IMG/VR virus record: IMGVR_UViG_3300043409_001275
Coordinates: 6,129 to 70,128 of that record
Strand: one strand, 5' to 3'
Origin: a virus
Length of the DNA stretch: 64,000 nt
Shown: piece after piece, positions 945 through 48,910 of the stretch
How the letters are laid out: each line of letters begins with the position of its first letter
Numbering within the stretch: position 1 is the stretch's first letter
The notes under the pieces: generated by a model
Databases searched by the model: none
The model's input: the letters and a program-made list of their open reading frames with translations, nothing else
Told to the model about the DNA's origin: nothing
Made by a program: the position numbers and the translations under genes

Positions 945-2804
945 ATGATTACCATTTTTAAGAACATTTTTTCCAAGGAACCAAATTACATTTCTGTTGA
1001 AGCTGCGTTAAAAAGAATACAGCAGGGTAAAAGTAAAACAACCGTAGAGGAAATTAGAAAAACGATTGATAAGGAGAAAGCAAATAAGATAAAATTAAAC
1101 CTTCCGTCTATTTGCTTTAGTGGAAAATTTGGAGCAGATAGAACTGATGCCCAATTAATTCAACATAGTGGTTTTGTTGTGCTTGATTTTGACAATATCT
1201 TTGAATTAAGGGAAAAGCAAACCGAAATAATATCAAATCCGTTTGTTTATGCTTGTTGGATTAGTCCTTCTGGAAATGGATTGAAGGCATTGGTAAAAAT
1301 AGCCAATGGGGCAAAGCATAGAGAACATTTTCAAGCTTTACAAGAAGTTTTCCCAGAAATTGATAAAAGCGGTATCAATGTAAGTCGGGTTTGTTACGAG
1401 AGTTATGATACCGAAATTTACATAAACGAAAATGCTGAAGTATTTAAGAAAATTAAGAAAACAGAGAAGGTTGTCGTTTATGAAAAGAATGATGATGACG
1501 AAAAGATTTTTAAAAATATCGTTACTTGGCTTTCAAATAAAAACGAGGCTTTTGTAACAGGGGAAAGAAATAATTTTATTTTTAAATTAGCATCCGCTTG
1601 TTGCCGTTTTGGTATTAATGAAATGACCGCTAATTCAATGATTCATAGCGAGTTTTTAACTAATTCAGAGTTTACAAAAAACGAAGCTAATAGGGCAATC
1701 CGTTCAGCATATAAAGCTAATTCGGGTAATTTTGGTAGCGCATCTTTTGACAAAGAAATCTTGGTAGATAAGGTTTCAAGAAGGGAAGTTGAAGTTGAAA
1801 AAGCAGTATTTGATGAAGGGTTAAAGTTGAAAGATGTTATTTACGGAATTGATGTAAAAGAGCAGGCGTTAAAAATTTATGATGAAGGATATGCTAGGGT
1901 TGATGGTATTGGAGTTCCCGAATTAGATGAAAGATTTAAACCAAAGAGAGGGGAGATTACCGTACTTACAGGAATAGGGAACTATGGTAAATCTTCATTT
2001 AAAAAGTGGTATCAAGCTATGAGGATAATGTTGTACGGAGAGAAGTTTGCTACATTCTCGCCAGAGGATAATCCACCTGAAGAATACTACCACGACTTTG
2101 TTGAGATTATATTGGGATGCGATTGTAGTCCTGCAAATCCACATAGACCAAGCAAGCAAGTATATGAGTATGTTTATGACTTGGTTTGTCATCATGTATT
2201 TTATGTTTATCCAAAGGATGTATCACCTACGCCACAATACATAATGGAAGTATTTTTAGAATTGATTGTTAAGGAGAATGTTGATGGGGTTGATATTGAC
2301 CCGTTTAACCAATTAACAAATGAATATCAAAAGTTTCAAAGAAGTGATAAATATTTAGAGTGGGTATTGTCAGTGTTTTCAAGATTCTCTCAAATAAACA
2401 ATATTTTCTTTTGGATAATTGCGCATCCAACAAAAATGCAAAAAGCAGCAGATGGAAACTATCCATGTCCCGATGTATTTGATTTAACTGATGGAGCTAT
2501 GTGGAATAATAAAATGGATAATATCCTTGTGTATCATAGACCTTTTGCTCAAACAGACCCTCAAAATCCGTCTTGTGAATTTCATAGTAAAAAAATAAGA
2601 AGGCAAAAGATTGTTGGTAAAAAAGGTTTTATTTTGTTTCAAATGTTTTTTCAAACTAGAAGATTTTTATTTAATGGATTGGATTCGTTGCAGAAGATTA
2701 TAAACGATAAAAATATAATTTTAAGACCAGATGCCGCGGTGCAAAAGACATTTGATAATTGGGTTCCCTATAAAGATGACAATGGAGAAGATGTAAATTT
2801 TTAA
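945..2804 (+). CDS. Primase-helicase fusion (BT4734/VirE-N AEP-like primase, PriCT, SF4 helicase)
   Basis: KLNLPSICFSG, VVLDFD and ISPSGNGLK primase motifs; GERNNFIFKLA PriCT motif; Walker A TGIGNYGKS; IDPFNQL and IIAHPTK SF4 motifs. Confidence 0.85.
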   Translation: MITIFKNIFSKEPNYISVEAALKRIQQGKSKTTVEEIRKTIDKEKANKIKLNLPSICFSGKFGADRTDAQLIQHSGFVVLDFDNIFELREKQTEIISNPFVYACWISPSGNGLKALVKIANGAKHREHFQALQEVFPEIDKSGINVSRVCYESYDTEIYINENAEVFKKIKKTEKVVVYEKNDDDEKIFKNIVTWLSNKNEAFVTGERNNFIFKLASACCRFGINEMTANSMIHSEFLTNSEFTKNEANRAIRSAYKANSGNFGSASFDKEILVDKVSRREVEVEKAVFDEGLKLKDVIYGIDVKEQALKIYDEGYARVDGIGVPELDERFKPKRGEITVLTGIGNYGKSSFKKWYQAMRIMLYGEKFATFSPEDNPPEEYYHDFVEIILGCDCSPANPHRPSKQVYEYVYDLVCHHVFYVYPKDVSPTPQYIMEVFLELIVKENVDGVDIDPFNQLTNEYQKFQRSDKYLEWVLSVFSRFSQINNIFFWIIAHPTKMQKAADGNYPCPDVFDLTDGAMWNNKMDNILVYHRPFAQTDPQNPSCEFHSKKIRRQKIVGKKGFILFQMFFQTRRFLFNGLDSLQKIINDKNIILRPDAAVQKTFDNWVPYKDDNGEDVNF

Positions 2805-2821
2805 TATAAAAAACAAAAACA

Positions 2822-3163
2822 ATGATTAGAATTTCTGTAATCGGAAGATTAGGACAAGACGCAGTCGTAAACAATGTCAATGGTAAAAATGTAATTAATT
2901 TCTCTGTAGCTTACAGCGAAAAGTTTAAAAACCAACAAGGAGAAGATACCGAAAGAACAACTTGGGTTTCTTGCGCTTATTGGACTGAAAAGCTTAATGT
3001 GTCAAACTATTTAAAGAAAGGTACATTGGTTTATACGGAGGGAAAGCCAGAAGCAAAGTCTTATCAAAACACCAAGACAAATGAAACCGTTCCTCAATTA
3101 CATTGTAGAGTATCAACAATACAATTATTATCAAGTAGTAATAAAGAAGAAAACAATTTTTAA
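2822..3163 (+). CDS. ssb: Single-stranded DNA-binding protein
   Basis: IGRLGQDA...FSVA...TTWVSC...YLKKGTLVYTEG OB-fold signature. Confidence 0.92.
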   Translation: MIRISVIGRLGQDAVVNNVNGKNVINFSVAYSEKFKNQQGEDTERTTWVSCAYWTEKLNVSNYLKKGTLVYTEGKPEAKSYQNTKTNETVPQLHCRVSTIQLLSSSNKEENNF

Positions 3164-3408
3164 TGTATATTCACGAATTAAACAACCCAATAGATGTCGA
3201 AACTCCACTTGGATACGGAAAAGCAATTGCATGGATTGACTACGGAAGTGACACAAACACTGTTTGGAAAGTCATACTATACCACAACGGCATGGTGCGG
3301 AACTTTTACGACGACGACATACTCGTGCATCCAAATAAAATGGACGGCGGCGAATTAGATAAAGATTATTTTAAAAACAAAACTAAAAAAAATGACACAT
3401 TTATTTAA
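3163..3408 (+). CDS. Hypothetical phage protein
   Basis: ORF coupled to ssb by a TAATG overlap. Confidence 0.6.
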   Translation: MYIHELNNPIDVETPLGYGKAIAWIDYGSDTNTVWKVILYHNGMVRNFYDDDILVHPNKMDGGELDKDYFKNKTKKNDTFI

Positions 3409-3631
3409 CTTTTCAAAAGAGTATTTTGAATCAATTAAAAATGGAGAAAAAAATTTCATTTTAACAAAAAGAGATAGACCTTACAAAAATGGTGACGAAA
3501 TAGTCGTTCAGGAAACTGACGAAGGTTTCGGTTTGACATCAGATGAGTTGAGGTTTAAAATTACTTTAATTGAAAATGGTGAAGGATTAAAGTCAAATTA
3601 TTGTATTATTGCAATTAAACTTTTAAATTAA
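3392..3631 (+). CDS. ASCH/PUA-like (DUF3850-type) protein
   Basis: YFESIKNGEKNF...DRPYKNGDEIVVQE motif. Confidence 0.7.
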   Translation: MTHLFNFSKEYFESIKNGEKNFILTKRDRPYKNGDEIVVQETDEGFGLTSDELRFKITLIENGEGLKSNYCIIAIKLLN

Positions 3632-3636
3632 AAAAA

Positions 3637-3756
3637 ATGGCAAAACTTGCGTCTTCAAGTAAAATTACATTTGGTAAAGCAAAAACAGGCAGAGCTAAAA
3701 AATCTTACAATAAACACAGTCAAAGACCAAAAGCGTATCGAGGTCAAGGGCGCTAA
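3637..3756 (+). CDS. Small basic protein, 39 aa (MAKLASSSKITFGKAKTGRAKKSYNKHSQRPKAYRGQGR); not in the ORF track
   Basis: ATG after an A-run, stop TAA at 3754-3756; K/R-rich, ends in the YRGQGR motif seen in small phage proteins. Confidence 0.7.
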   Translation: MAKLASSSKITFGKAKTGRAKKSYNKHSQRPKAYRGQGR

Positions 3757-5609: not shown

Positions 5610-6251
5610 ATGGCTAATAGCACTAAATACCTTTTGGCTGAACAAGTACAAACCCGATTAGCCGGCGGATTCAGGGACGCAAGTCAACCTGTGCAAAATG
5701 TAGATATAGTTAAAGCAATAGAGCAAATTATCAACTCTATGTTTCAAATGCAGTATTACAATGCTACATTGCCAACAGGAGAAACTATCCCAGATAATTT
5801 AATGATAGCTTTTTATGAAAATATACCTGTAACAACTCTTGGTGACAAATCACAAGCCGAACTACCAATTATTCCAATTTCTTTACCAAGAAATATGGGT
5901 GTTTATAGGGTTACAGATAATAAAGATAATGATTTTATTCCTGTTCCATTGGGGCAAGGAGCATTATTGAGGGCTGATAAATTATTGAACGATTTGTTGG
6001 GAAATGTTTGGTTTGAAATAAGAAAAAACGTTGTTATTTTTTCAAAAGATATTTTATTGCTTGGTATTGATACGGTAAATATGTATTTGATTGTAATGGA
6101 TATATCATTGTATTCAAACACTGACCCATTGCCAATACCTGCAAGTATGGAAGAGGAAATTGTAGAGAAAGCGTTTGCTAAATTTGCTACAGTCATTCCT
6201 GAAACGGGCATAGTTAACAATTATAGTTCAGCATCACAAAAAATTAATTAG
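5610..6251 (+). CDS. crAss-like tail ring protein
   Basis: Size and position; ELP.IPISLPRNMGV and DPLPIPASMEEEIV motifs. Confidence 0.55.
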   Translation: MANSTKYLLAEQVQTRLAGGFRDASQPVQNVDIVKAIEQIINSMFQMQYYNATLPTGETIPDNLMIAFYENIPVTTLGDKSQAELPIIPISLPRNMGVYRVTDNKDNDFIPVPLGQGALLRADKLLNDLLGNVWFEIRKNVVIFSKDILLLGIDTVNMYLIVMDISLYSNTDPLPIPASMEEEIVEKAFAKFATVIPETGIVNNYSSASQKIN

Positions 6252-13029: not shown

Positions 13030-16000
13030 ATGCCAGAAGAACAAAATAATCCGTTTGCAGAATTTGGTGGGGAAGTAGTAAAAAAGGAGGCAAATCCGTT
13101 TGCAGAATTTGGTGGGGAATTAAAAAAAAAAGACCAACCTACACGTTCAGGATATTCGGTTACACCATTACCATCTCAAGATAAATTTGATATAGGAGAA
13201 GAAGTGGCTACTATTGGATATAAAAGTCCAATAGGTAAAGCTATTCAGAAAGATAAAATTAAGGGCAGCAATGTAGCCGGAGTATATAATACATTAGTCG
13301 GAAGCTTATCGTCAATTGTAGGAGGCGGTGTTTATATGGCTGACATACTTGGCGCTCAACCTTCTATGCCATTAAGCGTGAGAATTGCTAATGCGGATGC
13401 AGATAGAAAGAAAGCTGTTAGTTTTATAGAACAAGCTCGCTCATCAAGGTCAAGTAAAGAATTCGAACAGCAACAAAGTGAGTTTGATGTTACTCCAAAA
13501 GAAGGTGGAGGGTTATTTAGTGGCGTAGATTTTGAAGATGTTAGAGGGTTAGCTTTTCAAGCGCCTAAAACATTATTAGAAATGGCTGCCGGCGCATATT
13601 CTGGTGGTTTGACATTTGCCCAACAATCAATTAATGATAATGCAAAAGAATTAGAAGAAAGCGGGGAAGGTAAAAAATTAACCGATGTTCAAAAGGTAGG
13701 ATATTTATTTACTCAAGCGGCAGCTCAAGCAGCTCTTGAGAAATTTTCTATAGATAAAATATTAAAAAATACAGGTTTAGCTAAAAGTATACAAAAGAAA
13801 ATTACAGCAGAGGTTATTGAAGGGTTTGCTCAAAAAGGTATAAAAGCTACTGCAAAAGAGGTTCAAGATGAGATGGTTAAAAAAGCAGCTAAACTATCTA
13901 CTAAATTAAAAAATGTAGGTATAAAAGGAGTAGAAAGTGCTTTTGTGGAAGGAAGTACAGAAGGTATTCAGCAAGCGGCTTCAGATGCTATAAAAGTAGC
14001 AACTAATAAAATAGCAGAAAAAGAAGTTTTTAATGAAGAAGATATAAATAAAAACTTTTGGAAAAATGTTGTTAATAATGCCGTTATGGGTGCTGCAATG
14101 GGCGGAGCAACGGGAGCAGGTTTACAGGGCTTAAATAGTACTGACAAGGCGATTAGACAAGAGATTGCTAATGCAACAGGTGAAAAGAAGTTTTATGTTG
14201 ATGATAAAGAAGTAACAGAAAAGGAGTTTGGTCAATCTACAGGTAACAAAAAAGTTACCACTGATTTGCAGAATATACAAGACCAAATTAACAAACAAGT
14301 AGAAGAAGGTAACTTAACCCCAGAAGAAGCAGAAGCAGCAAACATAACTGCACAACAATATGCAGAAATTGCAGGGAAGATTCCTACAACAGTATCAAAA
14401 GAAGATAAGTATAAAATTATAGGTGGTATTTCTCAAAGAAATCAATTACAAGAAGATTTGCAAAAAGCTCGCGAAGAGATGATGCAAGTTGACCCTATAT
14501 TTAGAAAAGAAAAGCAAGACCAAATTGATTTAATACAAGCTAAAATAGATGAAACAGGCGATTATTTAGAAGGTCTTGCAACCGGTAAAAAGCCAAGATA
14601 CATTAAAAGAGATGGCAGAAAAGGGGAAGAAACTACCTATTATAAAGTTGATGAAAATGGGGATAAGACTCCAATAAGTCAAGCTCGTTATGATTTAGCT
14701 AAAGCAATTAAAAAAGAAGATAGCAGAAAGAAAGCTCCTGTTGATGAAAACAGACGCAGAAGAGTAGAGCAATTTGATATATTATATGGTGTAAAATCAA
14801 ACAACCCAGAATTTGATTTTCCTAATTCATTTGAAGAATTTAATAAGAAAATAGATAGCGACCCTAATTATTTGTCTGATTTATACAAAAGAGCAAAAAA
14901 GTACAAAGAAACAGGAGAAATTGCTGAAGATGAAATGGGTACGGAAGCATCTTTTATAGAAGCCATAAATCCGCCTGTAGAAAAGGATATTACAATAGGC
15001 GAGATTGTAGATAAAAAAGGTACATACAAAGACCAAAAAGGAACTTTCTTACAAGAAGGCGATAATGTTGTCTTTGAGAACGAGGCTTCAGGAGAAAAGT
15101 ATGAAATAGGTAAAGTGTCTGAAATACAAGAGAAGCCAGCGTCAGAATTTGATATTAAATATGATGAATCTTTAGTTTCAATTGATGACAAAGGCAATAT
15201 AAGTGTAAGAGAAAAACCTTACATAAACAGATACTCAAATCCATTAAAAGCTATTAATAAAGATGAAAATGGAAATATAGTTTCCGTTAATTTGGAAACA
15301 GCTGATGGTAAAAAGAGAACATTTAAAGGAAGTATAGCTGAAGATATAGCTTATCAAATAAACTTAAAAGAGAAAAGCAAAGAAGCGCCTAAAGTTGAAC
15401 CTAAAGCCGAACAGGTTGTCGAAAAGCCTGTTCAAGTAGTTAAGCCGGTTAAACCAGTTGTTGAAGTAAAAGAAGAAGTTAAACCATTTGAAGAGTTAGT
15501 TAATTTAATTCCGACAGCAGATTTAAAAAGACCAAATGGCTCAATAGGTACGCAAGGGTTTACAGAAGAAAATATTATTAATGTAGCAAGGTTTATTGCG
15601 AGTGAAACGGGTTTTGATATACCAATATTTGATAAAAATTTAGGCACAAGTAAAATAAAGCAGGTAATTGAATATTTAAAAAACAATAAAGAAGCACAAC
15701 AAAAGATAAAAGAGTATGTTATAAAAGACCCTGTTGTTACAAGTTTATTGCCTGATGGTACTTATGAAATTGAAGATGGCAACCATAGGGCAAATTTGTT
15801 AAATTTAATTGGAGTAGATGCTATTCCTACAATAGAATTAAGTGGCAGAGATAAGCAAACTGCAATTAATGAACATAACGCTAAAGTTGAAGCAATAGAA
15901 AAATCTCTACCTACCAAAGAAGAACCAACTGAAGTAAAGGAGCAGGTCAAACCTACTAAAGTTGAAGAAATTAAAACTAAAATAAAATCTAAATTAAAAA

Positions 16001-19000
16001 GTTTTAAAGAAAGGTTTGCTCCTGTAAAGAAAACATCTACGAAAGGTGAAAAAATTGCTGAAGCTAAAGATGTTTATAAAAAAGTAAAAGAAATGGACGC
16101 TCCTTCTGACGGAGCGGAGGTTGGGTTAAGGTATTTAGCGGATGGTGGTATAGTTAGTCAGGCTGTTGTTGATGAAATTGCAGGTACTACTGCTAATGTT
16201 AGAGCCACATTAAATACCGGAAGAAAGGTTAAAACAAAATCAGAGGAAAGCAAGTCTAGAGATTATGTTAGCGGTAACGAGTCGTTAGATGATTTAGTGC
16301 ATAGATTATGGGAGGTAAATAAACAAAGGATTGATATAGATGATATTAAGGAGGCTTTGATGGATGAAATTGGAAATAATAATACAAGATTTGATGCAGC
16401 TAAAGCTTATTTAGAAAGATATAGTCCAGAATATACTCAAAAGTCATATGAGGACAGAATGAGCGAGCAGATGCAAGCTGAAGAAGAAGAGTTTAGAAGA
16501 AAATTAGAAGAAGAAGGATTAGAAGAAGCTCCATTTGCTGTTAGAGAAGCAACTACAGAAGATATAGAATCAATGCAAGAAATTGTAGCTGATTATGTAA
16601 AAGATGGAGTTACAGCATTGGATGATATAAAAAGAGAGGTAGCAAAAGAATTAGGATATAACACAAAGGCATTAAGACAAATCGTTGAGGATGCCTATAA
16701 TAGATACACTACAACAACCGAGGTTGCTCCTGCAGAGGTTTTAGGGGCTATTGCCGATAGGGTTGGAAATAAGATGAAGCAAATGTTCGGTAAGGCAGCT
16801 CAAGCGCCGGTTATACTTAATGATGCTAATTCTATGCTTGATAAGGCAGTTGAATTGGGAGCAAGTGGTGAAGTTATAGAATTCCAAAAAGAGCAAGCAA
16901 AACAACAAAAAGGCGCATCTATATCAGATAAAACTGCTATTGATGAATTGAGGTCAAAAACAGAAGATAAAGCTAAAATTAGCATTATTGATGCAGCTGA
17001 AAAAATGATAACAACACTAAAATCAGTGTTGCCTAATTTTGATATTGTAATACATGGTAGCAACGAAAGTTATAACGCAGCCATGAAAGATGCTGAAATT
17101 GACGGTGTAGTTGGGGGCGTTGGTAATTTTAGTTATTCTAAAAAGAAAGGTGAATATTCAGGTCGTATTGATATTAACTTGAACAGAGCAAATAATAAGA
17201 CATTAGCGCACGAGGTAGCTCATGGAGTTATGTTGAAGGCATTTGGCGATAACCCAAAATTATTTAAAGAATTTAGGGAGAAGATAGCATCTGTACTAAA
17301 TGAAAGTGATAATCAAACATTAATCGATTTTGCTGACAGGGCTACTTATGCAAAAAATGATACTTACGAGGAGTATTTAGCAGAATTAACAGCTATGTTA
17401 GCTGAACAGGAAACTAAATTATCTACAAGTACATTCCAAAAAATTGCTGCTATTATAAATGATATAATAGAGAAGATAACAAATGGCGCATTTAAACCAT
17501 TTAAAGATATTAAAAAAACAAAGCAAGTTGTTGACTTTTTTAATGACATATCGGAGTCTATTCGTAAAGGAGAGGCAATAAAGATTGAAAATATCAAAAC
17601 CGCAGAGGAATTAAAAAAGCAGGCTAAACTAGAATTAGAGGATTTTGAAAGAATTGCCACAGAAAGCATTGCGGATATTGCTAGGATGTTTGGTATGGAT
17701 TTAGGTAATCCAGTAGCTTCAAAAGCTCAAGTTCCTGTTGAAAAGCTTCCTAGACCTGTAATTAATGGATTTGATGTTTTAAAGAAAAAATTTGGCGAAA
17801 CAGCAGCTAAAGCAATAAGAAGTAAAATACAAATTGCAATAAATTATCCTACTGAATTTATTGATTTTATAACAGCAAAAATACCAATAAAAGAAGATGT
17901 TTCATTTATTGTAGACAAGATGGGGGATAATTTGGACGGCTTATTTAGAATAGCGATTCAAAAAAATTCTGAAGCCGCAGATGCAAAAGGTAAAACTCCA
18001 GAAGAATTATCAAAAGAGGCGGGGTATGTATTTTATAAGCCTAAAAGCAATGATGATTTAATAGTATTTAAAAAGGATTTTAAAGAATTTGAAGTATTAT
18101 GTACATTTAATGACCCAAGTAGAATAAATAACAATGTTATTTTCTGGTTAAGAAGAAATAACGCAGAAACTGTATTGCATGCAAGGGAGGTGACACAAGA
18201 GTATTTGAAAGAAGAATCAGAAGGCGCTATTTTATGGCGTGATTATTTAGATAAAAAGGGTTTAAAAAAAGATGACGGCTCATATGATTTATCAAATTTA
18301 GACCCAAGAAGAGAAGACCCTTATGGGACATCTTCAATGAGTGTTCAGATAGGAAGAACTGGTACAGGACCAGATAGACTCCCGATTGGAAAGCCTTCAA
18401 TAAAAAATAGATATAATCATAGGGTAGACGCTCCTGACGAAACATTTGATAGTAATTTAGATAATATAATAAGCGGGCTTGAGAAAGCTGTATATAGTAT
18501 AGAGGGGGTTCCTGAAAGAAGAAATGAAATTGGACGCCAACCAAGCCTTCCGGATTACATACATAAAGACAATCAAGGTAGACTATTTAAATATGACCAA
18601 CAGATTAATGGTGTTTATATTAGCAAAAATGGATACTATGATGGTAATTTGCATATAATAGATAAATCTACGCAAAAAATTGTTGACGATTATTTAATTG
18701 ATTCAAAAAATAAAACTGCAAACTCTTTAGTAGGTACCAGAAGTATTTTAACTGATATTAATAAAATTTCTTTTGACAAAAATACTATTAAAATTCAATC
18801 AGATAAAGGTTCTTTAAATCTTGAGCTTGTTGATGGGGTGCTTGATAAAATAAGTGGCGATATTGCAAGGTTAGAGAATTCATTTATGTTTTACAATAAA
18901 TCCTTGACTAGTATTGATTTGCCATCGGTTAAATCTATTGGTAATGATTTTCTTTATTCAAATGAAACCTTAAGAAGCGTTAATTTGCCATTAGTTGAAA

Positions 19001-22000
19001 GGATTGGCGATGAGTTTCTTAATCGTAATATTGCTTTAGAAAATATTGATTTACCATTAGTTAGTATTATTGGTACTCAATTTCTTAATAGAAATGTATC
19101 TTTAGAAAATGTCAATATGCCTTCTGCTGTAATTATTGGCGACGATTTTCTTAAATATAATGAAATTTTGGAAAATCTTGATTTGCCATCGGTGCAAATG
19201 GTTGGTTATAATTTTCTTTACAACAATAAATATTTAAAAAGTGCTAACTTGCCAAACATTAGAGTTGTTAGCGAAGCTTTTCTTAGCAAAAATCAATCTT
19301 TAAAAAATATTGATTTCCCATTACTTGTAAAAGTTCCGTCAAGTTTTTTATCTCAAAATGAAAATATAGAAGAAGTTAATCTTCCATTAGTAACTGAAAT
19401 TGGCTCTAATTTTTTAGGTAATAATAAATATTTAAAAAAATTAAATTTACCATTAGTAAAATCAATTGAAAGTGAGTTTCTTCCCCTAAACAATATTTTA
19501 GAAGAAATTAATTTGCCTTTAGTGGAAAAAATAGGTTCTGAATTTCTTCTTTATAACGAATCTTTGACAACAATAAGTTTACCATCTGTTAAAAATATTG
19601 GTAGTAGATTTATGAAATCTAGCGTTTTAACTAGCATTAATTTACCATTAGTTGAAGGCATTGACCGTGAATTTCTTGAAGATAACCGTAGGCTAGAAAG
19701 TATTAATTTACCTTCTGCTGAATTAATAGGAAATGATTTTTTAAGTAGAAATCAATACATAAAAAGTGTTGAATTACCTTTGGTAAAATATGTAGGTAAT
19801 AGATTTTTAAGTAATGCTAGAGAATTAATAAATATAAAATTACCATCTGTTAAAATAATTGGTGATAAATTTCTTTATGTAAACAAATTTTTAACCAATA
19901 TTGATTTGCCTTTGGTTAATGCAATTGGGGAGGATTTTTTATATAATAATGAATCTTTATCAAGTATAAAATTACCGTTAGTTGATATAATTGGAAGTGA
20001 TTTTCTTCATAATAATAAATCTTTGACAAGTTTAGATTTGCCATTGGTTACAAAAATTGGCTATGACTTTCTTTTTGAAAATAAATCTTTAGCAAAAATT
20101 AATCTTCCATCTGTTATAAATATTAGTAGTTCATTTCTTAAATACAATGAAGCATTGACTAGCATTGATTTACCATTAGTTGAGTCTATCGGAAATCAAT
20201 TTCTTTTTTTTAATGAATCTTTAGAAAATATTAATTTGCCAAATGTTCTATATATTCGAAATGATTTTCTTTATAGTAATGAATCTTTTTTAAAAACTCT
20301 TAAATTGCCAAAAGTTGTAGGTATAGGTAGCGATTTTCTTCATTATAATAATTCTTTAACAACTCTTGAATTGCCAAAAGTTGAACGGATAGATGATGAT
20401 TTTCTTTTTAATAATATGTCTTTAGAAAATTTAGAATTGCCATCTATTAAAATTTTTAGTCCCAACGGATTTTTTTCTAAAAATAAGGTTTTAGCAAATA
20501 AAATAGCTTTGGCTAGCATGGAATCAGCTGAAGTAAGGTCAAAAGCGCAAATGCCAATGTTTATGGCTAATCAAAATGGGGAAGATATTTTAGGCTTTTC
20601 TTATGACAATAGAATGTATTTAAATGGAGAGAAACTTAATCCTAATACTATAATCCACGAAGCAGGTCATATTTGGACAGAGTGGATTAAGAATAATGAT
20701 ACTAAATTGTATGATAAGGGTATGGAATTGGTTGAAAAGTCACCATACTTGCAAAAAGCAAAGAATAGCAAATTTTACCAAGAACAAGCAGATAAATTAG
20801 CTACAGAAGAGCAAAGAGAGGCTTACTTTAAGCACGAAGCATTAGCTATGGCTATTGGTGATAAGGGAGCGCAATTTGTATTAGAAAGCAAAAAAGAATC
20901 ATTCCAAGATTGGTTAAAAACTTTGTGGACTAAAATAAAGAACTTAACAGGATTTAAAGATTTGACAGCAGAAGAGTTCCAAAACTTGACTTTTGACCAA
21001 TTCTCTAAAATGGCTGTTAAAGAAATTTTAGGTACAGAAGGTGCAGTTGACAAGTTAAATGCAATAAAAAGTTTTAGGAACAAAAAGAAATTTATAAAAG
21101 ATAATCTAAAATACGAATCAAATAAAAATGCAATAGACGAACTTGATTTTACAGAAGAAGATTTCATTGAAATCGCAAAGTCAAATTTTGATTTATCAAC
21201 CTTTAAAAATATAAAAGATGCCGTACAAAAGCGAAGCACAAAGAAAGTACTTCAACCAAAACAAGGAGAAGATGGAGAAGCAAGGGGTGGACGTAGACGA
21301 GTGGAACCAAGAGTCGAAGGGGAAAGAATTGCCGATGAAGAAGGCGAAACCACACAGCCCGAAGGTATTACGCAAATCCCAGAAGAAATTCAAAATGTAG
21401 GATTAGAGAATCAAGACATAGACTATGTCCGTATAACCAAAGCGGAATTAGGTAAATTAAGAGAAAGTCTTGGACTACCTGCATACAAAGGATTGCCTAT
21501 TGAAAATCGTGAAATGTTGAGAGAAGCAGCTCAAGAAATGATTAAAAAAGGCGTAAGTGTTGAATCTTTGTATGATAAAATTAGAAGAGGTGATGTGTTA
21601 TCAAACTACGAAAATGCGTTTATGGCTGAATACAGAGCTGCATTGGATGTAGAATTAAAGAACAATCCTTCTCAAGAATTATTAAAAAAGATTGCAGAAT
21701 TTGCCGATATTTTTCAACAAGGAGCATCTCTAGCAGGTAAGGCGTTAGAAAGTTTAAAAATAATGAAGAAGCTTAACGAGGCTAACACATTATCTAACTT
21801 TTTATTGACTAGGCAAGAAGATAAAGGGTTTCCGTTGACTCCTAAAATGATGGTAGAAGAAACTGCTAAATTTGAAAAAGTACAAAAAGCTAAAAAAGAA
21901 TTAAAAGAATCTGTTGAAAATGATATTATAAACCAAGTTAAAACAGAAGCTGAAAATGAATTAAAGAAAGAAGGCAAAGCAAAAGTTAAAAAATCTCACG

Positions 22001-24186
22001 AAGAATTTGTAAAAGAAAGAAAAGCAGCATTAGTAGCCGCAAAAGAAGCCTTGAAAAAATTAAGAAGTGGAGAGCAAGGATTAATGGTTTCTGCGCCGGG
22101 ATTAAATGAATTAGTTGCAATAGCGCCGCATATGAATAAATATGTTAAAAGTTTATTTGCAGAAGGTGTTTCTAAATTAGATGATATTGTTACAGAAGTA
22201 CATAAAGAGTTTTCTGAATTGGTTGATGGATTAACAAAAAGAGATGTATTAGATGTAATTGCCGGCAAGCATAATCTTAAAAAAAGAACAGCTGACGAAT
22301 TAAATGCAGGATTAAGACTATTGCGCAGAGAGGCTGAATTATTAGCATTATTAGAAAAAGCTAGGTTGGGAGAAGAAGAAGCTAAATCTGAAAGCCAAAT
22401 GGCGGAAAAGAGCAAAAGGGTGCAAGAGTTAGAAAGAAAGATAAAGGAAGTTAAAGCATTAAATAAAGCCAAAGAATTAGCAGAGGAAGGTGTTGAAGAA
22501 AAGTCGCCGACTATTGGTAAGGATGGAGTAGCTGATGCTGATTATAATCAAAAAAGACAAAAATATTTAGATAAAAAAATTAAAAAATTAGAAGACGATT
22601 TAAAAAATAAAAATTACGATAAAGAAGCAAAAGAAACTATAAAATATAAGGTTTCCGATAAAACCAAAAAAATGACAGATAGGGTTATTGAACTTGAAAA
22701 AGCAATTGCCCTAGAAAGATACAAAGACCAGACTAACAAATTAAGCAAATGGGAAAAAGCTTGGGATAAAATTCAAAGCGTATTGGGAATAAGGAGGATT
22801 GTTCAAACTGCTGTGGATGCTTCTATTTGGTTTAGACAATTGGCAAAGTTAACATTGAACCCTAGAAAGTGGGGGATTGCAAGGAAATTTATATTCGCAG
22901 GAGCGCAATCTGTATTTAGTCAGAAAAATTACGATAGATTAATGTACGGAATACATCAAGCACCTGATTTTGAAGAATCAGTTAAAGATGGCATTAGGTA
23001 CAATGAGCTAGATAGTATTGACCCTAAAAAGCAAAACGAAATGTTCCCTAAAAGTTTTGTATTTAAAATACCTATTTTAAGGGAATTAATAACCGCATCA
23101 CAAAGAATAGCGGATGCGTCTTTAAATGTCGCTCGATATGAATTGTATAATAAATACAAAAGGGAATTATTAAGAAAGGGAATAACTAGAGAAAGCGACC
23201 CTAATGAATACGAGCAGATGGCTAAACTTGTTATGAATAGTACGGGTAGCGGTAATATGCTTGAAATTTTAGAGTCAAGAAAGGCAGAAAAGGTTATGGG
23301 TTCTTTGTTTTACGGAGCTAGACTAATGGCTGCAAATATTAACACCCTGAATCCGGTTTATTATGTTAGAATGCCTAAAGAAGTTAGAAAAATGGCAATG
23401 AAGGATTTAGCATCATATACAACTACTGTAATAGCTACAACATTAGCTTTTGCCGCAGCAGGTGGTGCTGTATCAATGGACCCGGATGACCCTGAATTCT
23501 TGCAAGTTAGATTTAATGGTAAAGTTTATGACTTTACAGCAGGGCAAGCTGCTTACATTAGAACATTTTTGAGATGGGTTGAATTTGGTTATGCTAGAGC
23601 CGCTAAAAGTAAATTTGAAGCTAATGAAGCAGGGGCTTTTGCTTGGAGGTCAACTTTAAGCTTTTTTAGAAATAAATTAGCTCCAAATAATGCTTATTTA
23701 ATAAATGCGGCTACAGGTAAGAATTCTATAGGTCAAGATTTTGACCCAATGGAAATATTTCATGTATATCCAATGTATGCTGACGATGCTTATGAAGCTG
23801 CAAAAGAAGATGGCTTTGTATCGTTATTAACCGTGTTAATGCCAAATATTTTAGGAATAGGATATTCTAGTTATTATTCAGATAAGGCAATGAAGCCTAT
23901 GGATGAAGTAATAAATAGAGCGCAAAATAGCGATGAGTTAGACCCCGAATCGGTAAAAAAGGGAATTACTAAAAAAGAGTTCGAAGAATTTGCTAAATTG
24001 CGTGATAAATTAATTGCAGAAAAAATTGCCGAATTGTATCAAGAAGGTGTATATGATGCGGAAACACAAGAATATGTGCCAATCAAAAAATCAACACCAG
24101 AAAATATTACAGCGGCTATTATGCAAGCAAAGTCAGCTGCAACAAAAGAAGCTAAATCTGAATTTAATGCCGATGATGAAGAATAA
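13030..24186 (+). CDS. Giant polyvalent virion-associated protein (ParB-like domain, two zincin HExxH domains, LRR cassette, coiled coils)
   Basis: 3718 aa; EDGNHR at about 15775; HEVAH at 17209-17223; HEAGH at 20656-20670; 24 LRRs; hydrophobic Gly/Ala segments near both ends. Confidence 0.75.
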   Translation: MPEEQNNPFAEFGGEVVKKEANPFAEFGGELKKKDQPTRSGYSVTPLPSQDKFDIGEEVATIGYKSPIGKAIQKDKIKGSNVAGVYNTLVGSLSSIVGGGVYMADILGAQPSMPLSVRIANADADRKKAVSFIEQARSSRSSKEFEQQQSEFDVTPKEGGGLFSGVDFEDVRGLAFQAPKTLLEMAAGAYSGGLTFAQQSINDNAKELEESGEGKKLTDVQKVGYLFTQAAAQAALEKFSIDKILKNTGLAKSIQKKITAEVIEGFAQKGIKATAKEVQDEMVKKAAKLSTKLKNVGIKGVESAFVEGSTEGIQQAASDAIKVATNKIAEKEVFNEEDINKNFWKNVVNNAVMGAAMGGATGAGLQGLNSTDKAIRQEIANATGEKKFYVDDKEVTEKEFGQSTGNKKVTTDLQNIQDQINKQVEEGNLTPEEAEAANITAQQYAEIAGKIPTTVSKEDKYKIIGGISQRNQLQEDLQKAREEMMQVDPIFRKEKQDQIDLIQAKIDETGDYLEGLATGKKPRYIKRDGRKGEETTYYKVDENGDKTPISQARYDLAKAIKKEDSRKKAPVDENRRRRVEQFDILYGVKSNNPEFDFPNSFEEFNKKIDSDPNYLSDLYKRAKKYKETGEIAEDEMGTEASFIEAINPPVEKDITIGEIVDKKGTYKDQKGTFLQEGDNVVFENEASGEKYEIGKVSEIQEKPASEFDIKYDESLVSIDDKGNISVREKPYINRYSNPLKAINKDENGNIVSVNLETADGKKRTFKGSIAEDIAYQINLKEKSKEAPKVEPKAEQVVEKPVQVVKPVKPVVEVKEEVKPFEELVNLIPTADLKRPNGSIGTQGFTEENIINVARFIASETGFDIPIFDKNLGTSKIKQVIEYLKNNKEAQQKIKEYVIKDPVVTSLLPDGTYEIEDGNHRANLLNLIGVDAIPTIELSGRDKQTAINEHNAKVEAIEKSLPTKEEPTEVKEQVKPTKVEEIKTKIKSKLKSFKERFAPVKKTSTKGEKIAEAKDVYKKVKEMDAPSDGAEVGLRYLADGGIVSQAVVDEIAGTTANVRATLNTGRKVKTKSEESKSRDYVSGNESLDDLVHRLWEVNKQRIDIDDIKEALMDEIGNNNTRFDAAKAYLERYSPEYTQKSYEDRMSEQMQAEEEEFRRKLEEEGLEEAPFAVREATTEDIESMQEIVADYVKDGVTALDDIKREVAKELGYNTKALRQIVEDAYNRYTTTTEVAPAEVLGAIADRVGNKMKQMFGKAAQAPVILNDANSMLDKAVELGASGEVIEFQKEQAKQQKGASISDKTAIDELRSKTEDKAKISIIDAAEKMITTLKSVLPNFDIVIHGSNESYNAAMKDAEIDGVVGGVGNFSYSKKKGEYSGRIDINLNRANNKTLAHEVAHGVMLKAFGDNPKLFKEFREKIASVLNESDNQTLIDFADRATYAKNDTYEEYLAELTAMLAEQETKLSTSTFQKIAAIINDIIEKITNGAFKPFKDIKKTKQVVDFFNDISESIRKGEAIKIENIKTAEELKKQAKLELEDFERIATESIADIARMFGMDLGNPVASKAQVPVEKLPRPVINGFDVLKKKFGETAAKAIRSKIQIAINYPTEFIDFITAKIPIKEDVSFIVDKMGDNLDGLFRIAIQKNSEAADAKGKTPEELSKEAGYVFYKPKSNDDLIVFKKDFKEFEVLCTFNDPSRINNNVIFWLRRNNAETVLHAREVTQEYLKEESEGAILWRDYLDKKGLKKDDGSYDLSNLDPRREDPYGTSSMSVQIGRTGTGPDRLPIGKPSIKNRYNHRVDAPDETFDSNLDNIISGLEKAVYSIEGVPERRNEIGRQPSLPDYIHKDNQGRLFKYDQQINGVYISKNGYYDGNLHIIDKSTQKIVDDYLIDSKNKTANSLVGTRSILTDINKISFDKNTIKIQSDKGSLNLELVDGVLDKISGDIARLENSFMFYNKSLTSIDLPSVKSIGNDFLYSNETLRSVNLPLVERIGDEFLNRNIALENIDLPLVSIIGTQFLNRNVSLENVNMPSAVIIGDDFLKYNEILENLDLPSVQMVGYNFLYNNKYLKSANLPNIRVVSEAFLSKNQSLKNIDFPLLVKVPSSFLSQNENIEEVNLPLVTEIGSNFLGNNKYLKKLNLPLVKSIESEFLPLNNILEEINLPLVEKIGSEFLLYNESLTTISLPSVKNIGSRFMKSSVLTSINLPLVEGIDREFLEDNRRLESINLPSAELIGNDFLSRNQYIKSVELPLVKYVGNRFLSNARELINIKLPSVKIIGDKFLYVNKFLTNIDLPLVNAIGEDFLYNNESLSSIKLPLVDIIGSDFLHNNKSLTSLDLPLVTKIGYDFLFENKSLAKINLPSVINISSSFLKYNEALTSIDLPLVESIGNQFLFFNESLENINLPNVLYIRNDFLYSNESFLKTLKLPKVVGIGSDFLHYNNSLTTLELPKVERIDDDFLFNNMSLENLELPSIKIFSPNGFFSKNKVLANKIALASMESAEVRSKAQMPMFMANQNGEDILGFSYDNRMYLNGEKLNPNTIIHEAGHIWTEWIKNNDTKLYDKGMELVEKSPYLQKAKNSKFYQEQADKLATEEQREAYFKHEALAMAIGDKGAQFVLESKKESFQDWLKTLWTKIKNLTGFKDLTAEEFQNLTFDQFSKMAVKEILGTEGAVDKLNAIKSFRNKKKFIKDNLKYESNKNAIDELDFTEEDFIEIAKSNFDLSTFKNIKDAVQKRSTKKVLQPKQGEDGEARGGRRRVEPRVEGERIADEEGETTQPEGITQIPEEIQNVGLENQDIDYVRITKAELGKLRESLGLPAYKGLPIENREMLREAAQEMIKKGVSVESLYDKIRRGDVLSNYENAFMAEYRAALDVELKNNPSQELLKKIAEFADIFQQGASLAGKALESLKIMKKLNEANTLSNFLLTRQEDKGFPLTPKMMVEETAKFEKVQKAKKELKESVENDIINQVKTEAENELKKEGKAKVKKSHEEFVKERKAALVAAKEALKKLRSGEQGLMVSAPGLNELVAIAPHMNKYVKSLFAEGVSKLDDIVTEVHKEFSELVDGLTKRDVLDVIAGKHNLKKRTADELNAGLRLLRREAELLALLEKARLGEEEAKSESQMAEKSKRVQELERKIKEVKALNKAKELAEEGVEEKSPTIGKDGVADADYNQKRQKYLDKKIKKLEDDLKNKNYDKEAKETIKYKVSDKTKKMTDRVIELEKAIALERYKDQTNKLSKWEKAWDKIQSVLGIRRIVQTAVDASIWFRQLAKLTLNPRKWGIARKFIFAGAQSVFSQKNYDRLMYGIHQAPDFEESVKDGIRYNELDSIDPKKQNEMFPKSFVFKIPILRELITASQRIADASLNVARYELYNKYKRELLRKGITRESDPNEYEQMAKLVMNSTGSGNMLEILESRKAEKVMGSLFYGARLMAANINTLNPVYYVRMPKEVRKMAMKDLASYTTTVIATTLAFAAAGGAVSMDPDDPEFLQVRFNGKVYDFTAGQAAYIRTFLRWVEFGYARAAKSKFEANEAGAFAWRSTLSFFRNKLAPNNAYLINAATGKNSIGQDFDPMEIFHVYPMYADDAYEAAKEDGFVSLLTVLMPNILGIGYSSYYSDKAMKPMDEVINRAQNSDELDPESVKKGITKKEFEEFAKLRDKLIAEKIAELYQEGVYDAETQEYVPIKKSTPENITAAIMQAKSAATKEAKSEFNADDEE
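13048..13119 (+). repeat. 27-nt direct repeat encoding NPFAEFGGE twice
   Basis: AATCCGTTTGCAGAATTTGGTGGGGAA at 13048-13074 and 13093-13119. Confidence 0.9.
18871..20460 (+). repeat. About 24 BspA-type leucine-rich repeats of 22 aa
   Basis: Consensus LxxIxLPxVxxIGxxFLxxNxx; 24 LP/MP/FP anchors counted. Confidence 0.9.
21218..21400 (+). CDS. Small basic protein nested in an alternative frame of the giant gene
   Basis: MPYKSEAQRKYF...VDEW...SKGKELP resembles a recurrent small phage protein type (MPFKSxAQR); A-rich context before the ATG. Confidence 0.6.
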   Translation: MPYKSEAQRKYFNQNKEKMEKQGVDVDEWNQESKGKELPMKKAKPHSPKVLRKSQKKFKM

Positions 24187-32799: not shown

Positions 32800-35166
32800 A
32801 TGCAACAACAAACAAATACTTATCCTAATCAACAAGTTGACCCACGGGACAAGGGATATGATTTTATCTTGCAATATTGCAAAGCGGCATGGGGGGATTC
32901 CCGTGGTTATGTGCCGAATAATATGTTGAACTTTGGTCAGTCTAAAATGAATGAAATAAGAGAGTATGCATTAGGAAGACAAAGCACTACAAAGTATAAA
33001 AAACTTTTGAATGTAGATGAGCAAACAGATAAAACATGGCTTAATACGGATTGGACTCCACCTTCATTTTTAACAAAGTATAGAGAGATAGCTATTTCAA
33101 AACTTGTTCAAAGGCGTTATGATTTGCAAGCATTTGCAGTTGACCCATTAGCTAAAAGTGAAGAAGATGAACGCTTTAATGAAATGAAAGTTAAAGTGAT
33201 GATGCGTGAGGCTGCAATGAAAGCAGGTAATGAGCAATTAGCTAACAGCCCAGTATTAAAACCAATGGAGGGTGAGCCTGAAGATATGGAGCAGTTGTTA
33301 ATGGAGCAACAATTTGGTTACAAACATGTTATGGCAATGGAAGCAGAATGTGCTATTGCTTTGACAATGTATAAAAATAAATTTGACGAGAAAAGAAAAA
33401 GAACTATTGAAAATTTATTTGATTTTGGTATTGGTGGATATACTGAATATATAGATGAGAATGGTGCGGTGAATGTAAGAGAAGTTAATCCTGAAAATTT
33501 AGTATTATCGTATTGCGCAAAAAATGACTTTTCCGATTTAGTACATTTCGGAGAAGTTAGAGAAGTATATGTAGGGGACTTGGCACCTTATTTTTCCCCC
33601 GACCAATTAAATTTGATAGTTCAATCTGTAGCCGGACGCTTTGGTAACCCATCTAACTTTATGTATGGCACAGACTATTCAAAGTATTGGAATCGTTTTA
33701 AGGTGCTTATTTTAGATTTTGAATTCCTATCATGGAATGATTACACTTATAAAGAAGAAATAGATAACAGAGGTAATGCTCGCTTTGGTAAAACAAAGTA
33801 TCAGGATTCAAGCAAAATGGACTTGGCGGTTAATGAGAAGGGAACAATTGAAAAGTTTGACTATGCAGGTTCTGTACCTAGTTTAGTTGACTCAAAGAGC
33901 AAAGGACAAGCCGAGCCTGTATATATGCCTGTTACTAAAAAGGTTGTTTATAAGTGTAAATGGTTAATTCAAACTGATTATATGTATGATTGGGGTATGT
34001 CTGAAAATCAAATTAGACAACCTTCGTCTTGGTGGGATACAAAATTAAACATCCAATTATATTCATGGAATTTCTATAAGATGCGTTTTGCAGGCATTAC
34101 AGAAAGATTAATTCCGTTAGAAGATAAAGCGTGTTTAGCTTGGTTCAGGCTTCAAAATATGTCTAATAAATTAATTCCGTATTTAATAAATATAGATTTA
34201 AATGCATTAGAAGGAGTTGATTTTGGTGGTGGTGGAGATAAGATGAATCCAACAAAGGTTATGGATTTTATATTTTCTAATTTTGTTGTACCTTATCGTT
34301 CAACTGATTTGTTAAGTCAAAATCCAAACTACAAGCCAGTAAGCATTGAAGCTTCAGGGCAATTAGCTGTATTTGGTCAATTGTATCAAGAGTTGCAAAA
34401 CACTATTGATATGATGCGTCAAATATCAGGATTGAATGAATTGACAGATGGCTCTACTCCAAATGCAAAAACATTAGTTCCAGTTGCAAACGCTGCAATG
34501 GAAAGTACTAATAATGCTTTATACTTATTAAGTTTTGCAGATAAGCAATTAGTGCAAAATGTTGCAGACGCTATTGTTGCAAAAGTACAAATAGCTGTTA
34601 AATTAGGTAAGGTAGAAGGTTATGGTAGAGCATTAGGTACGGAAACCGTTAAATTTTTCCAAATCAATCCTAATATATCTATTCATGAATTTGGTATATT
34701 TATTGAAGATAGCCCGTCTGATTACGAAAGACAACAATTAATACAAGAATTAAATATTAGAGATTCTCAAGGATTGATTGAGCCTGAAGATAAAATACTT
34801 GTAATGAGTTGCCGTAATTTAAAAATGGCATCAATGATACTTGCATATAAGATTAAGAAGCGTAGAGAGAAGATGCAAGAGTTTGAATTGCAAAAGGTAA
34901 GAGAGGCTTCTCAAGGTAATGTAATGGCGACTCAAGCAGCAGAGCAAGAAAAGCGTATTACATTGCAAGACCAATTAAATGCAGATATAGCTAAAATTAA
35001 TGCTGAAAAACAATGGGAATATATTATTCAAATGGGTAAGAAGGATAAAGATATTCAAGAAGCTGAAATACAAAAAGAAGCAAAAGTTATCGCTCAAAGA
35101 ATAGCAGCAGATGCTAGAATAGCGGTAAGCGACAGGAAACAAGTACAAACAATGAAAACAAAATAA
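32800..35166 (+). CDS. Portal protein (crAss-like)
   Basis: 788 aa downstream of terL; YALGRQST.KYK, ISGLNELTDGSTP and IHEFGIFIE motifs; coiled-coil C-terminus. Confidence 0.8.
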   Translation: MQQQTNTYPNQQVDPRDKGYDFILQYCKAAWGDSRGYVPNNMLNFGQSKMNEIREYALGRQSTTKYKKLLNVDEQTDKTWLNTDWTPPSFLTKYREIAISKLVQRRYDLQAFAVDPLAKSEEDERFNEMKVKVMMREAAMKAGNEQLANSPVLKPMEGEPEDMEQLLMEQQFGYKHVMAMEAECAIALTMYKNKFDEKRKRTIENLFDFGIGGYTEYIDENGAVNVREVNPENLVLSYCAKNDFSDLVHFGEVREVYVGDLAPYFSPDQLNLIVQSVAGRFGNPSNFMYGTDYSKYWNRFKVLILDFEFLSWNDYTYKEEIDNRGNARFGKTKYQDSSKMDLAVNEKGTIEKFDYAGSVPSLVDSKSKGQAEPVYMPVTKKVVYKCKWLIQTDYMYDWGMSENQIRQPSSWWDTKLNIQLYSWNFYKMRFAGITERLIPLEDKACLAWFRLQNMSNKLIPYLINIDLNALEGVDFGGGGDKMNPTKVMDFIFSNFVVPYRSTDLLSQNPNYKPVSIEASGQLAVFGQLYQELQNTIDMMRQISGLNELTDGSTPNAKTLVPVANAAMESTNNALYLLSFADKQLVQNVADAIVAKVQIAVKLGKVEGYGRALGTETVKFFQINPNISIHEFGIFIEDSPSDYERQQLIQELNIRDSQGLIEPEDKILVMSCRNLKMASMILAYKIKKRREKMQEFELQKVREASQGNVMATQAAEQEKRITLQDQLNADIAKINAEKQWEYIIQMGKKDKDIQEAEIQKEAKVIAQRIAADARIAVSDRKQVQTMKTK

Positions 35167-47156: not shown

Positions 47157-48910
47157 TGAAAGCTAATAACTACCTAGTAACTTGGACTGACTTAAGTACT
47201 ATGGGCTTAACCGCTAGAGGAACACCTCCTACCGGATTAGCTATTGCTAATAAAGCTGAATTGATTGCTGCTTATTATGTAGACCAATCGGCTTCCCCAT
47301 TTTCTACTTATGCATCAAACAGATGCCCTAGATATCAGGATATAGTTGCATTAGATATACCTTCGCTTTCCGTATGGGGTGCTAGGGATTCTTATAGTGG
47401 GTTTTCGATTAATGCAGGATTAGTATTTACTAACTATTCAGGATTAACTACTAATGATGTTTATAATGCAATAGGAGTAAGTAATGATGGAGTTTATGTA
47501 TGTATTTCAAAAGATTTTGGTTTTTCCGATAATGGGAGATTGATGATATCCAATAATAGCGGCTCAACATTTACAGCGATTAGTTTTTATTTTGGTTCGC
47601 CATCTAATACAGATATTGTGTTTGGAAAAGTGGGTGTGTCATTCACAGGTCAGTACATGATGGCAATTGTTTGTAGCACCCCTCCCGGTGGCGGAAGAAT
47701 TATTGGCTTTTACGGGTCAAGTAATTATGGAAGTAGTTGGACTCCAATAGATTCTAAAAATACTAGTTCGGTTGGCAATTGCGGTATGTCGCAAAATGGA
47801 AGATATCAAACATTTGTATGGTTTTTAAGCGGTGATTCATATAGATATTATTCAACAGATTTTGGTTCGAGTTGGACATTATCTAGCGCCTTTTCAACAA
47901 CTCTTTATACTGATATAAAAATGTCAAATACGGGATTATATCAGATAATTTCAGGATATAATGGAGGTACAGGAGGAGGAAGAATATACGCAAGCTCTAA
48001 TTCAGGGGGCAGTTTTACAGAGCGCATTTACGATGCAAGTTATTCTATGGATTTTGTGGCTATGACAGATGATGGAGTTTATCAAATAGGGATGGGCAAG
48101 AGTGGGAAATATTATATTTCAACAGATTCGGGTGCGACATTCCCAATAACAGGAATTATTTCTGGTGGTATTATAACATCAATAGCAATGACTGCTTATG
48201 ATTATGGTTCAACTCCATATATAATGGCTTACTCTTCTAATCAAGCGTATGTATATATTTCAAAATCTCCGTTTTCATCATGGAGTGCAGTGCCTATAGA
48301 TAATGTTATTTCTTGGAATAATATACAAAGTAGGGCAATAGTCTATCCATACACACCTGAATTAATTCCTTTAGAATATTCTTATACATTATACTACGAC
48401 TATAATGATACACTACCTGTTGTAATAGGATTTACAGTTGCAGATGATGCTTGTTCGGCAGTTAATTCATTTACCGTATATTCTAATTATAGCCCTATAA
48501 GTGTAGGCGCAACTCTTTATTATGATATTTATGGAACAACAGAAATAGAAGCTGTTCCAAGTAGCGCAGCATCTCAAAATTATTATGCAATAGGGAATAA
48601 CATAATACAATTTTCTGATAATTATACTATTGACTCAATAACATCATGTCCAGTATATGCAGGAGATGTTTGGTTTGGTACTTATTCAGGCGAAGCTTGT
48701 AGCGAAAGTAGTCCACAACAATATTTATATTGGGAAGGAAGCCAATTATTCTACAATGGATTAGTTTTATATACAGATATGGCATTATTATTCCCTTACA
48801 ATAATACAAGCGGATATACATATTGTAGAAGTGATGGTAGCGGTGGAGGGTTTGATGAATTTAATTTAAGCGGGGATACATTAGGTTCAGCTACAGGAGT
48901 TGCTTGTTAA
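47156..48910 (+). CDS. Putative receptor-binding protein with BNR/Asp-box beta-propeller repeats
   Basis: Repeated SxNxGxxF/W motifs (SNNSGSTF, SSNYGSSW, STDFGSSW, SSNSGGSF, STDSGATF). Confidence 0.7.
   Translation: MKANNYLVTWTDLSTMGLTARGTPPTGLAIANKAELIAAYYVDQSASPFSTYASNRCPRYQDIVALDIPSLSVWGARDSYSGFSINAGLVFTNYSGLTTNDVYNAIGVSNDGVYVCISKDFGFSDNGRLMISNNSGSTFTAISFYFGSPSNTDIVFGKVGVSFTGQYMMAIVCSTPPGGGRIIGFYGSSNYGSSWTPIDSKNTSSVGNCGMSQNGRYQTFVWFLSGDSYRYYSTDFGSSWTLSSAFSTTLYTDIKMSNTGLYQIISGYNGGTGGGRIYASSNSGGSFTERIYDASYSMDFVAMTDDGVYQIGMGKSGKYYISTDSGATFPITGIISGGIITSIAMTAYDYGSTPYIMAYSSNQAYVYISKSPFSSWSAVPIDNVISWNNIQSRAIVYPYTPELIPLEYSYTLYYDYNDTLPVVIGFTVADDACSAVNSFTVYSNYSPISVGATLYYDIYGTTEIEAVPSSAASQNYYAIGNNIIQFSDNYTIDSITSCPVYAGDVWFGTYSGEACSESSPQQYLYWEGSQLFYNGLVLYTDMALLFPYNNTSGYTYCRSDGSGGGFDEFNLSGDTLGSATGVAC

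Follow-up and report, generated by a model that had tools for sequence, protein, structure and literature searches.

Does an open reading frame of 60 codons that lies entirely within the gene for a giant phage protein encode a protein in its own right and, if so, which of the two overlapping readings is the older one? The question is raised by a stretch of 64,000 nucleotides of viral DNA (positions 6,129 to 70,128 of the IMG/VR record IMGVR_UViG_3300043409_001275), which was analyzed as a whole and is termed the window in the following. The source record comprises 70,128 bp and is estimated to be 61% complete. On the evidence compiled here, we assign a probability of about 85% to the reading that the ORF at 21218-21400 is a genuine, conserved, dual-coded protein-coding gene. 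The features on which the analysis is built are the following:

13030 to 24186, plus strand: giant host ORF of 3718 aa, which reads through the small gene
21190 to 21217, plus strand: A-rich leader of the internal start; a similar context is present in relatives
21218 to 21400, plus strand: small gene of 60 codons and a stop, nested in the giant ORF and read in its +1 frame
21218 to 21343, plus strand: conserved core domain of the small protein (aa 1-42) with MPYKS start and GVDVxEW and SKGKxLP motifs; three short helices predicted
21344 to 21397, plus strand: C-terminal tail of the small protein (aa 43-60), basic and variable
21202 to 21336, plus strand: stretch with suppressed third-position variation in the giant frame (entropy, 11 relatives)
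21250 to 21438, plus strand: giant-frame segment that AF2 predicts to be disordered and to link two helical modules

Results

The small ORF and its setting

The small ORF starts with the ATG at 21218, ends with the stop codon at 21398-21400 and is located wholly inside the giant ORF, on the same strand and in a different frame, which is the arrangement of an embedded gene pair. The initial annotation had described a 60-aa ORF with an A-rich start; exactly this peptide was recovered, and the sequence just before its start is an A-rich leader (...ttaaaaatataaaagATG). A TAA in the small frame (21212-21214) is situated one codon upstream of the ATG. Across the span of the small ORF the giant frame translates as DAVQKRSTKKVLQPKQGEDGEARGGRRRVEPRVEGE..., and the GC content amounts to 0.43-0.47 over 21200-21400 versus 0.23-0.35 in most flanking windows (150-nt windows), such that the atypical R/G/E-rich segment of the host frame and the local GC rise that had been pointed out earlier are both confirmed.

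The small ORF is the longest alternative-frame ORF on the giant gene's own strand. Its length of 60 aa is by itself not significant and lies within chance. Above chance are the homology of the small peptide and its codon choice.

A widespread protein family with an N-terminal core domain

When 5.8 billion predicted proteins were searched with the small peptide, 144 matches with lengths of 33-105 aa were obtained at E<=0.1; over the core, these show identities of 60-80%. Among the 120 matches listed of these 144, E values range from 1e-17 to 4e-10 at identities of 55-89%. A profile search of 1.84 billion cluster representatives retrieved 887 at E<=1e-3, of which 349 reach E<=1e-10. By sequence, the small ORF belongs to a widespread, unnamed phage protein family. 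The resemblance to stand-alone phage proteins of the type MPFKSxAQR...KGKxLP, originally put forward together with a proposed search for homologues, is borne out, as stand-alone homologues were found in large numbers.

No family was found for the small peptide in Pfam, PHROGs or NCBIfam, and neither a Pfam nor a PHROG model was found for the family with its 887 clusters. Comparison of the peptide with 50,697 deposited phage records by tblastn gave only matches with E>=1, blastn of 20600-22000 gave no match, an HMM search of PDB sequences returned 0 matches, and Foldseek with the predicted fold detected nothing at E<=0.001 in PDB and BFVD. A feature search of the ESM Atlas identified DUF3008 (PF11450) as the nearest named cluster (score 0.83; DUF3008 on 15% of the cluster's members). 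DUF3008 likewise consists of small viral proteins. Membership was rejected, with 0 of 118 family members matching its HMM at E<=1.

Alignments of the family core revealed P2, S5, Q8, F12, G23, V24 and W29 as invariant. The window's peptide contains all of these as well as the nearly invariant core residues and, like the proteins with MPYKS start in general, possesses a basic tail; it differs from family members elsewhere in that it is nested instead of free. The tail that follows the core is variable, with length and sequence differing between copies. An HSPKVLRK-like motif in the tail of the window's peptide is common only to nested relatives. AF2 predicts helices at residues 6-14, 16-21 and 26-33 of the small protein, with pLDDT values of 86-93 over residues 1-30 and of 56-69 in the tail.

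The domain begins at residue 1 in 119 of the best 150 of the 887 representatives. In the other 31 it begins at an internal M (29 cases), L or V, 6-103 residues into the protein, which suggests over-extended start calls. Sizes could be measured for 149 of these top representatives: 69 comprise up to 110 aa, 44 between 111 and 400 aa and 36 more than 400 aa. The long family members carry extra NUDIX, DUF6321, DUF5872, DUF5661 or HExxH-containing regions. Judged from these comparisons, the domain of approximately 42 residues is always N-terminal and is followed either by just a basic tail or by the further domains of a longer protein. One copy, on a Chitinophagaceae MAG contig (L123:693-808), stops after 18 codons and may represent a broken gene or a sequencing error.

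Nesting is conserved in relatives

A scan of viral contigs yielded 308 confirmed relatives, the 80 most similar of which were kept. Seventy-six of these 80 loci were classified; L021, L030, L035 and L078 were left out because the search pattern missed them or a contig end was too near. In 29 of the best 80 of the 308 loci, a share that is biased upward since these loci are the ones closest to a nested query, and also in the window, the small ORF resides inside a stop-free span of 427-4057 codons. The frame offset of the giant span from the small ORF is +2 in every nested viral locus. Thirty-six of the non-nested viral loci are stand-alone, and in 11 the domain heads a protein of more than 100 aa. 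Among species-representative genomes all 44 matches fall into MAGs, many of them labelled Bacteroidota, and five of the 39 classifiable MAG-binned loci (L082, L097, L099, L105 and L110) show nesting in this frame too, some of them at a GC content of 0.59-0.67.

Conservation of the +1 ORF together with its ATG had been put forward as a check by the initial annotation. Both have stayed intact in each of the 22 distinct nested copies, whose mean nucleotide identity is only 74.6%; this count does not represent independent events because related sequences share ancestry. A tree of the 42-residue core implies six nesting changes on the best tree, only one of which is forced, and this tree is too poorly resolved to tell a single from multiple origins of nesting. 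Large parts of 20600-22000 occur in DNA contigs of freshwater, lake and drinking-water metagenomes, and the phage group seems to be common in fresh water.

Selection acts on both reading frames

In the 126-nt cores of the 22 distinct nested copies, amino-acid sequences are on average more alike in the small frame (mean identity 0.706) than in the third (0.554) or the giant frame (0.492). Entropy at codon positions 1, 2 and 3 of the small frame amounts to 0.58, 0.37 and 0.82 bits, respectively, as would be anticipated if these aligned cores code for protein in the small frame. Stand-alone copies exhibit a third-position entropy of 1.42 as compared with 0.82 in nested copies at equal protein divergence (0.695 and 0.706, respectively), and synonymous change is therefore suppressed in the nested copies.

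The imprint of the second frame is also apparent from the side of the giant gene. When 11 relatives were aligned by the codons of the giant frame, third positions had an entropy of only 0.06, 0.25 and 0.11 bits over 21202-21336 versus 0.65-0.93 bits in flanking 15-codon windows. The entropy recovers after 21336, and the dual constraint relaxes in the region of the small protein's tail. Suppressed synonymous variation in homologues of the giant gene, which had been suggested as a further check, is thus present exactly over the conserved core.

Codon choice points in the same direction. Giant-frame stops are absent from all 22 nested cores, while stand-alone cores contain 4.07 on average and only one of 29 is stop-free. 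Recoding of the small protein with the window's codon usage introduces a mean of 7.8 giant-frame stops, and a stop-free giant frame resulted in 0 of 100,000 random synonymous recodings. The observed GC content of 0.46, compared with 0.32 expected from recoding, was likewise reached in 0 of 100,000. The GC bump is explained by the requirement that the codons of the small gene keep the giant frame open. Codon 3 illustrates this: it is TAC in all 22 nested leader lines and TAT in 9 of 30 stand-alone lines, because TAT would create a TAA in the giant frame. Taken together, these comparisons indicate that both frames are kept open and constrained by selection in relatives. The proposal of a real small gene that is dual-coded within a linker has homologues, intact copies and two-frame constraint all in its favour.

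The same observations bear on the explanation that the small ORF is a fossil, that is a stand-alone gene that was swallowed by the giant ORF, is no longer translated and is conserved only via constraint on the giant frame or on the nucleotide sequence. That the small gene would predate its nesting agrees with this explanation, which we nevertheless consider improbable. Variation declines from third over first to second position of the small frame and is lowest at the third position of the giant frame, the opposite of what coding in the giant frame only would produce. Besides the ATG, the whole small frame has stayed intact in every distinct nested copy in spite of their nucleotide divergence, start contexts are kept among these copies, and the small gene is single-copy in the 70-kb virus record, which contains no second copy.

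Start signals and expression

Only 2 of 36 genes in the window are preceded by a Shine-Dalgarno (SD)-like motif; all have A-rich leaders, as does the small ORF. Nested copies of low GC content show an A-rich stretch with TTAAAAA-like words ahead of the ATG. SD-like purine motifs were recognized by eye 6-12 nt upstream of the higher-GC nested copies L033, L055, L074 and L097, and inspection by eye revealed no SD-like motif upstream of the nested copy L110. A small-frame stop one codon before the ATG is found in the window and in most nested copies. This upstream stop and the strictly N-terminal position of the domain favour independent initiation, and we infer that the small ORF is translated independently from its own ATG. 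Contigs from four RNA libraries cover parts of 20600-22000 and one RNA-library contig of 1205 nt spans the whole small ORF; these contigs are uninformative with regard to transcription, strand and ends.

The closest match in prokaryote assemblies, L082, is a contig of 63.6 kb binned with an uncultured Bacteroides MAG. This binning and the A-rich leaders with few SD-like motifs suggest a Bacteroidota host.

Programmed frameshifting offers another route into the small frame. A +1 shift from the giant frame would generate a truncated giant protein whose C-terminal end is encoded by the small frame. With a shift of -1 out of the small and into the giant frame, the domain would become fused to the C-terminal module of the giant protein. 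The geometry permits this, the giant frame being the -1 frame of the small ORF, and the domain often leads long proteins (80 of the 149 measurable top representatives exceed 110 aa). We judge frameshifting to be as improbable as the fossil, however, since the small frame is closed by a stop directly ahead of the ATG in the window and most nested copies and the domain always starts at a start codon. Furthermore, an in-phase X_XXY_YYZ heptamer is absent from the window ORF and from 15 of the 23 distinct nested ORFs, and the eight heptamer sites that do occur in nested ORFs vary in location. At E<=1e-3, similarity to the giant protein was detected in none of 77 long family members. With the slippery site not conserved and the 77 long members unlike the giant protein, products of a frameshift fusion are unlikely.

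The giant host protein

In Pfam the giant protein matches only LRR_5, and in PHROGs a single family of unknown function. HExxH motifs and a ParB-like motif were noticed in its translation by eye only. In an AF2 model of aa 2610-2930, residues 132-194 of the modelled piece have pLDDT values of 27-36 and no secondary structure, and the flanks reach values of 75-90 and 68-80. The overlapped giant segment is accordingly predicted to be a disordered linker, in line with the flexible linker originally postulated. It is of low complexity and conserved only where the small frame forces conservation.

Homologous giant ORFs are present in L001-L014 and others, with full-length relatives in L001-L004. 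The giant protein is modular: its counterparts in L005-L008 match residues 18-804 and 2520-3718 and do not contain about 1700 middle residues, among them those of the BspA-type LRR region (for which the best Pfam stretch is aa 1951-2069). Giant ORFs vary around the small gene, other loci having different modules up- or downstream of it. At some loci homologous giant-protein modules are found on the opposite side of the small gene.

Immediately upstream of the nested gene, the giant protein contains a block of approximately 50 residues that is conserved in the window (21070-21217), L005-L019 and L037. Conservation persists in relatives with only 24-30% identity over the 321-aa piece, and the pattern resembles IKS-x-KKKK-x-FV ... 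DL-x-T-x-KNI-x-DA-x-Q. Third-position variation is normal at 21070-21217 and conservation there is therefore at the protein level. The motif accompanies the nested gene.

Most of the giant protein is without a family match, and it could be argued that the giant ORF represents two genes or an assembly artefact, with the second frame open by accident. This is even less probable than a fossil or a frameshift, for the giant frame is open in all nested cores and in hardly any stand-alone core, not one of the 100,000 recodings was open, and homologous modules run on both sides of the small gene in independent assemblies. Least of all can the small ORF be a chance ORF without meaning: an ORF of at least 60 aa in an alternative frame does arise in 31.8% of 1000 codon shuffles of the giant gene, but this reading is refuted by the match of the peptide to a large conserved family (887 clusters) over the whole core with E values down to 1e-17.

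Gene neighbourhood

The giant gene is located between genes for a virion structural protein (upstream) and the large terminase TerL (downstream), and the portal is encoded at 32800-35166 of the window. The portal itself has 391 related proteins at E<=1e-20, many of which are 85% identical, with cluster sizes of 130 and 189 members. A minus-strand ORF of 934 aa (48907-51711) interrupts the gene array of the window, which is otherwise on the plus strand.

Stand-alone copies of the small gene lie between TerL and portal in L020 and L053, and the portal follows immediately downstream of the small gene in L070, L076 and L026. In L050 the order is TerL-portal-small, with the copy positioned 11 nt past a portal gene whose PHROG is also that of the window's portal. 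Other stand-alone copies are situated 4-12 nt after ORFs of 1035-3252 aa (L041, L044, L061, L075 and L077). Longer family members occupy similar gene places. In L041 an HNH endonuclease gene (L041:11279-11818) is present three genes downstream of the stand-alone small gene.

Discussion

In the reading that we prefer, the ORF at 21218-21400 is a dual-coded gene that would be served by two populations of ribosomes. Those translating the giant frame would read straight through and produce a disordered, R/G/E-rich linker, and others would initiate at the internal ATG behind the A-rich leader and produce a protein of 60 aa. As to the order of events, the small gene is probably the older partner, since it is widespread, occurs in genomes of very different GC content and is usually free, and the giant linker would be the overprinted, derived reading because of its low complexity and its conservation only where the small frame imposes it. 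The giant ORF would have come to cross the small gene, probably via fusion of flanking large genes, and selection would then have fixed unusual, G/C-rich synonymous codons in the small gene that leave the giant frame free of stops. The nested gene sits at a junction of two modules of the giant gene, which is itself located beside virion and packaging genes. The term overprinted gene, under which the initial annotation had introduced the locus, is consequently appropriate for the nesting in the +1 frame and misplaced with respect to polarity, as the small gene is apparently old and the linker the overprinted part.

With regard to function, gene neighbourhood and the position of the domain tentatively suggest that the small protein is an accessory of the head or packaging module, either working close to the portal or serving virion-internal proteins as an N-terminal leader. 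A more speculative and rather doubtful extension is that a free N-terminus is essential to the domain, which might for example be a portal-proximal or capsid-targeting leader for head-carried proteins. If this were true, the need for a free N-terminus would explain why the domain has never been absorbed in frame and why a fusion across it led to the recoding of about 60 codons instead. The conserved-nucleotide island, which is placed between different modules in each phage, could then serve as a recombination joint that lets giant proteins exchange modules.

A related arrangement of genes is known from virion-packaged polyvalent phage proteins, which, according to the passages searched in the article describing them, sit among head genes (Iyer et al., 2017; PMC5512222). 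The long family members resemble these proteins in combining an N-terminal domain with unrelated modules and in their location among head genes. The giant protein of the window differs in that it matches only LRR_5 in Pfam, and it is at most a candidate member of this group. The word "overlapping" has no occurrence in the searched passages of that article.

Within the listings and abstracts covered, the literature describes neither the family nor any gene nested within that of a giant phage protein. Few embedded genes are known in tailed phages, and the locus provides a further, well-supported one that is conserved across many lineages. Its polarity is unusual in that the young linker of a giant protein appears to have been overprinted on an old gene. 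A large protein family (887 clusters) with ties to the portal/terminase module and to giant multi-domain proteins comes to light as well. In every such phage, the small gene will escape gene callers that do not allow nesting. The combined signature of a phase switch of variable sites, codon recoding and a GC bump provides a template for finding further cases.

Genes embedded in other genes on the same strand are established in phages, examples being Rz1 inside Rz in the lambda spanins and genes B, K and E of phiX174. The locus studied here shares with them a complete small gene that is encoded in another frame of the same strand and is missed by annotation pipelines. Three differences stand out. 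The embedded gene seems to be the ancient, widespread partner and the host segment the young overprint. The host encodes 3718 aa in a genome of about 70 kb or more, in which a pressure for compaction is not obvious. Finally, the small gene also exists in other phages as a free gene or at the head of genes for long proteins.
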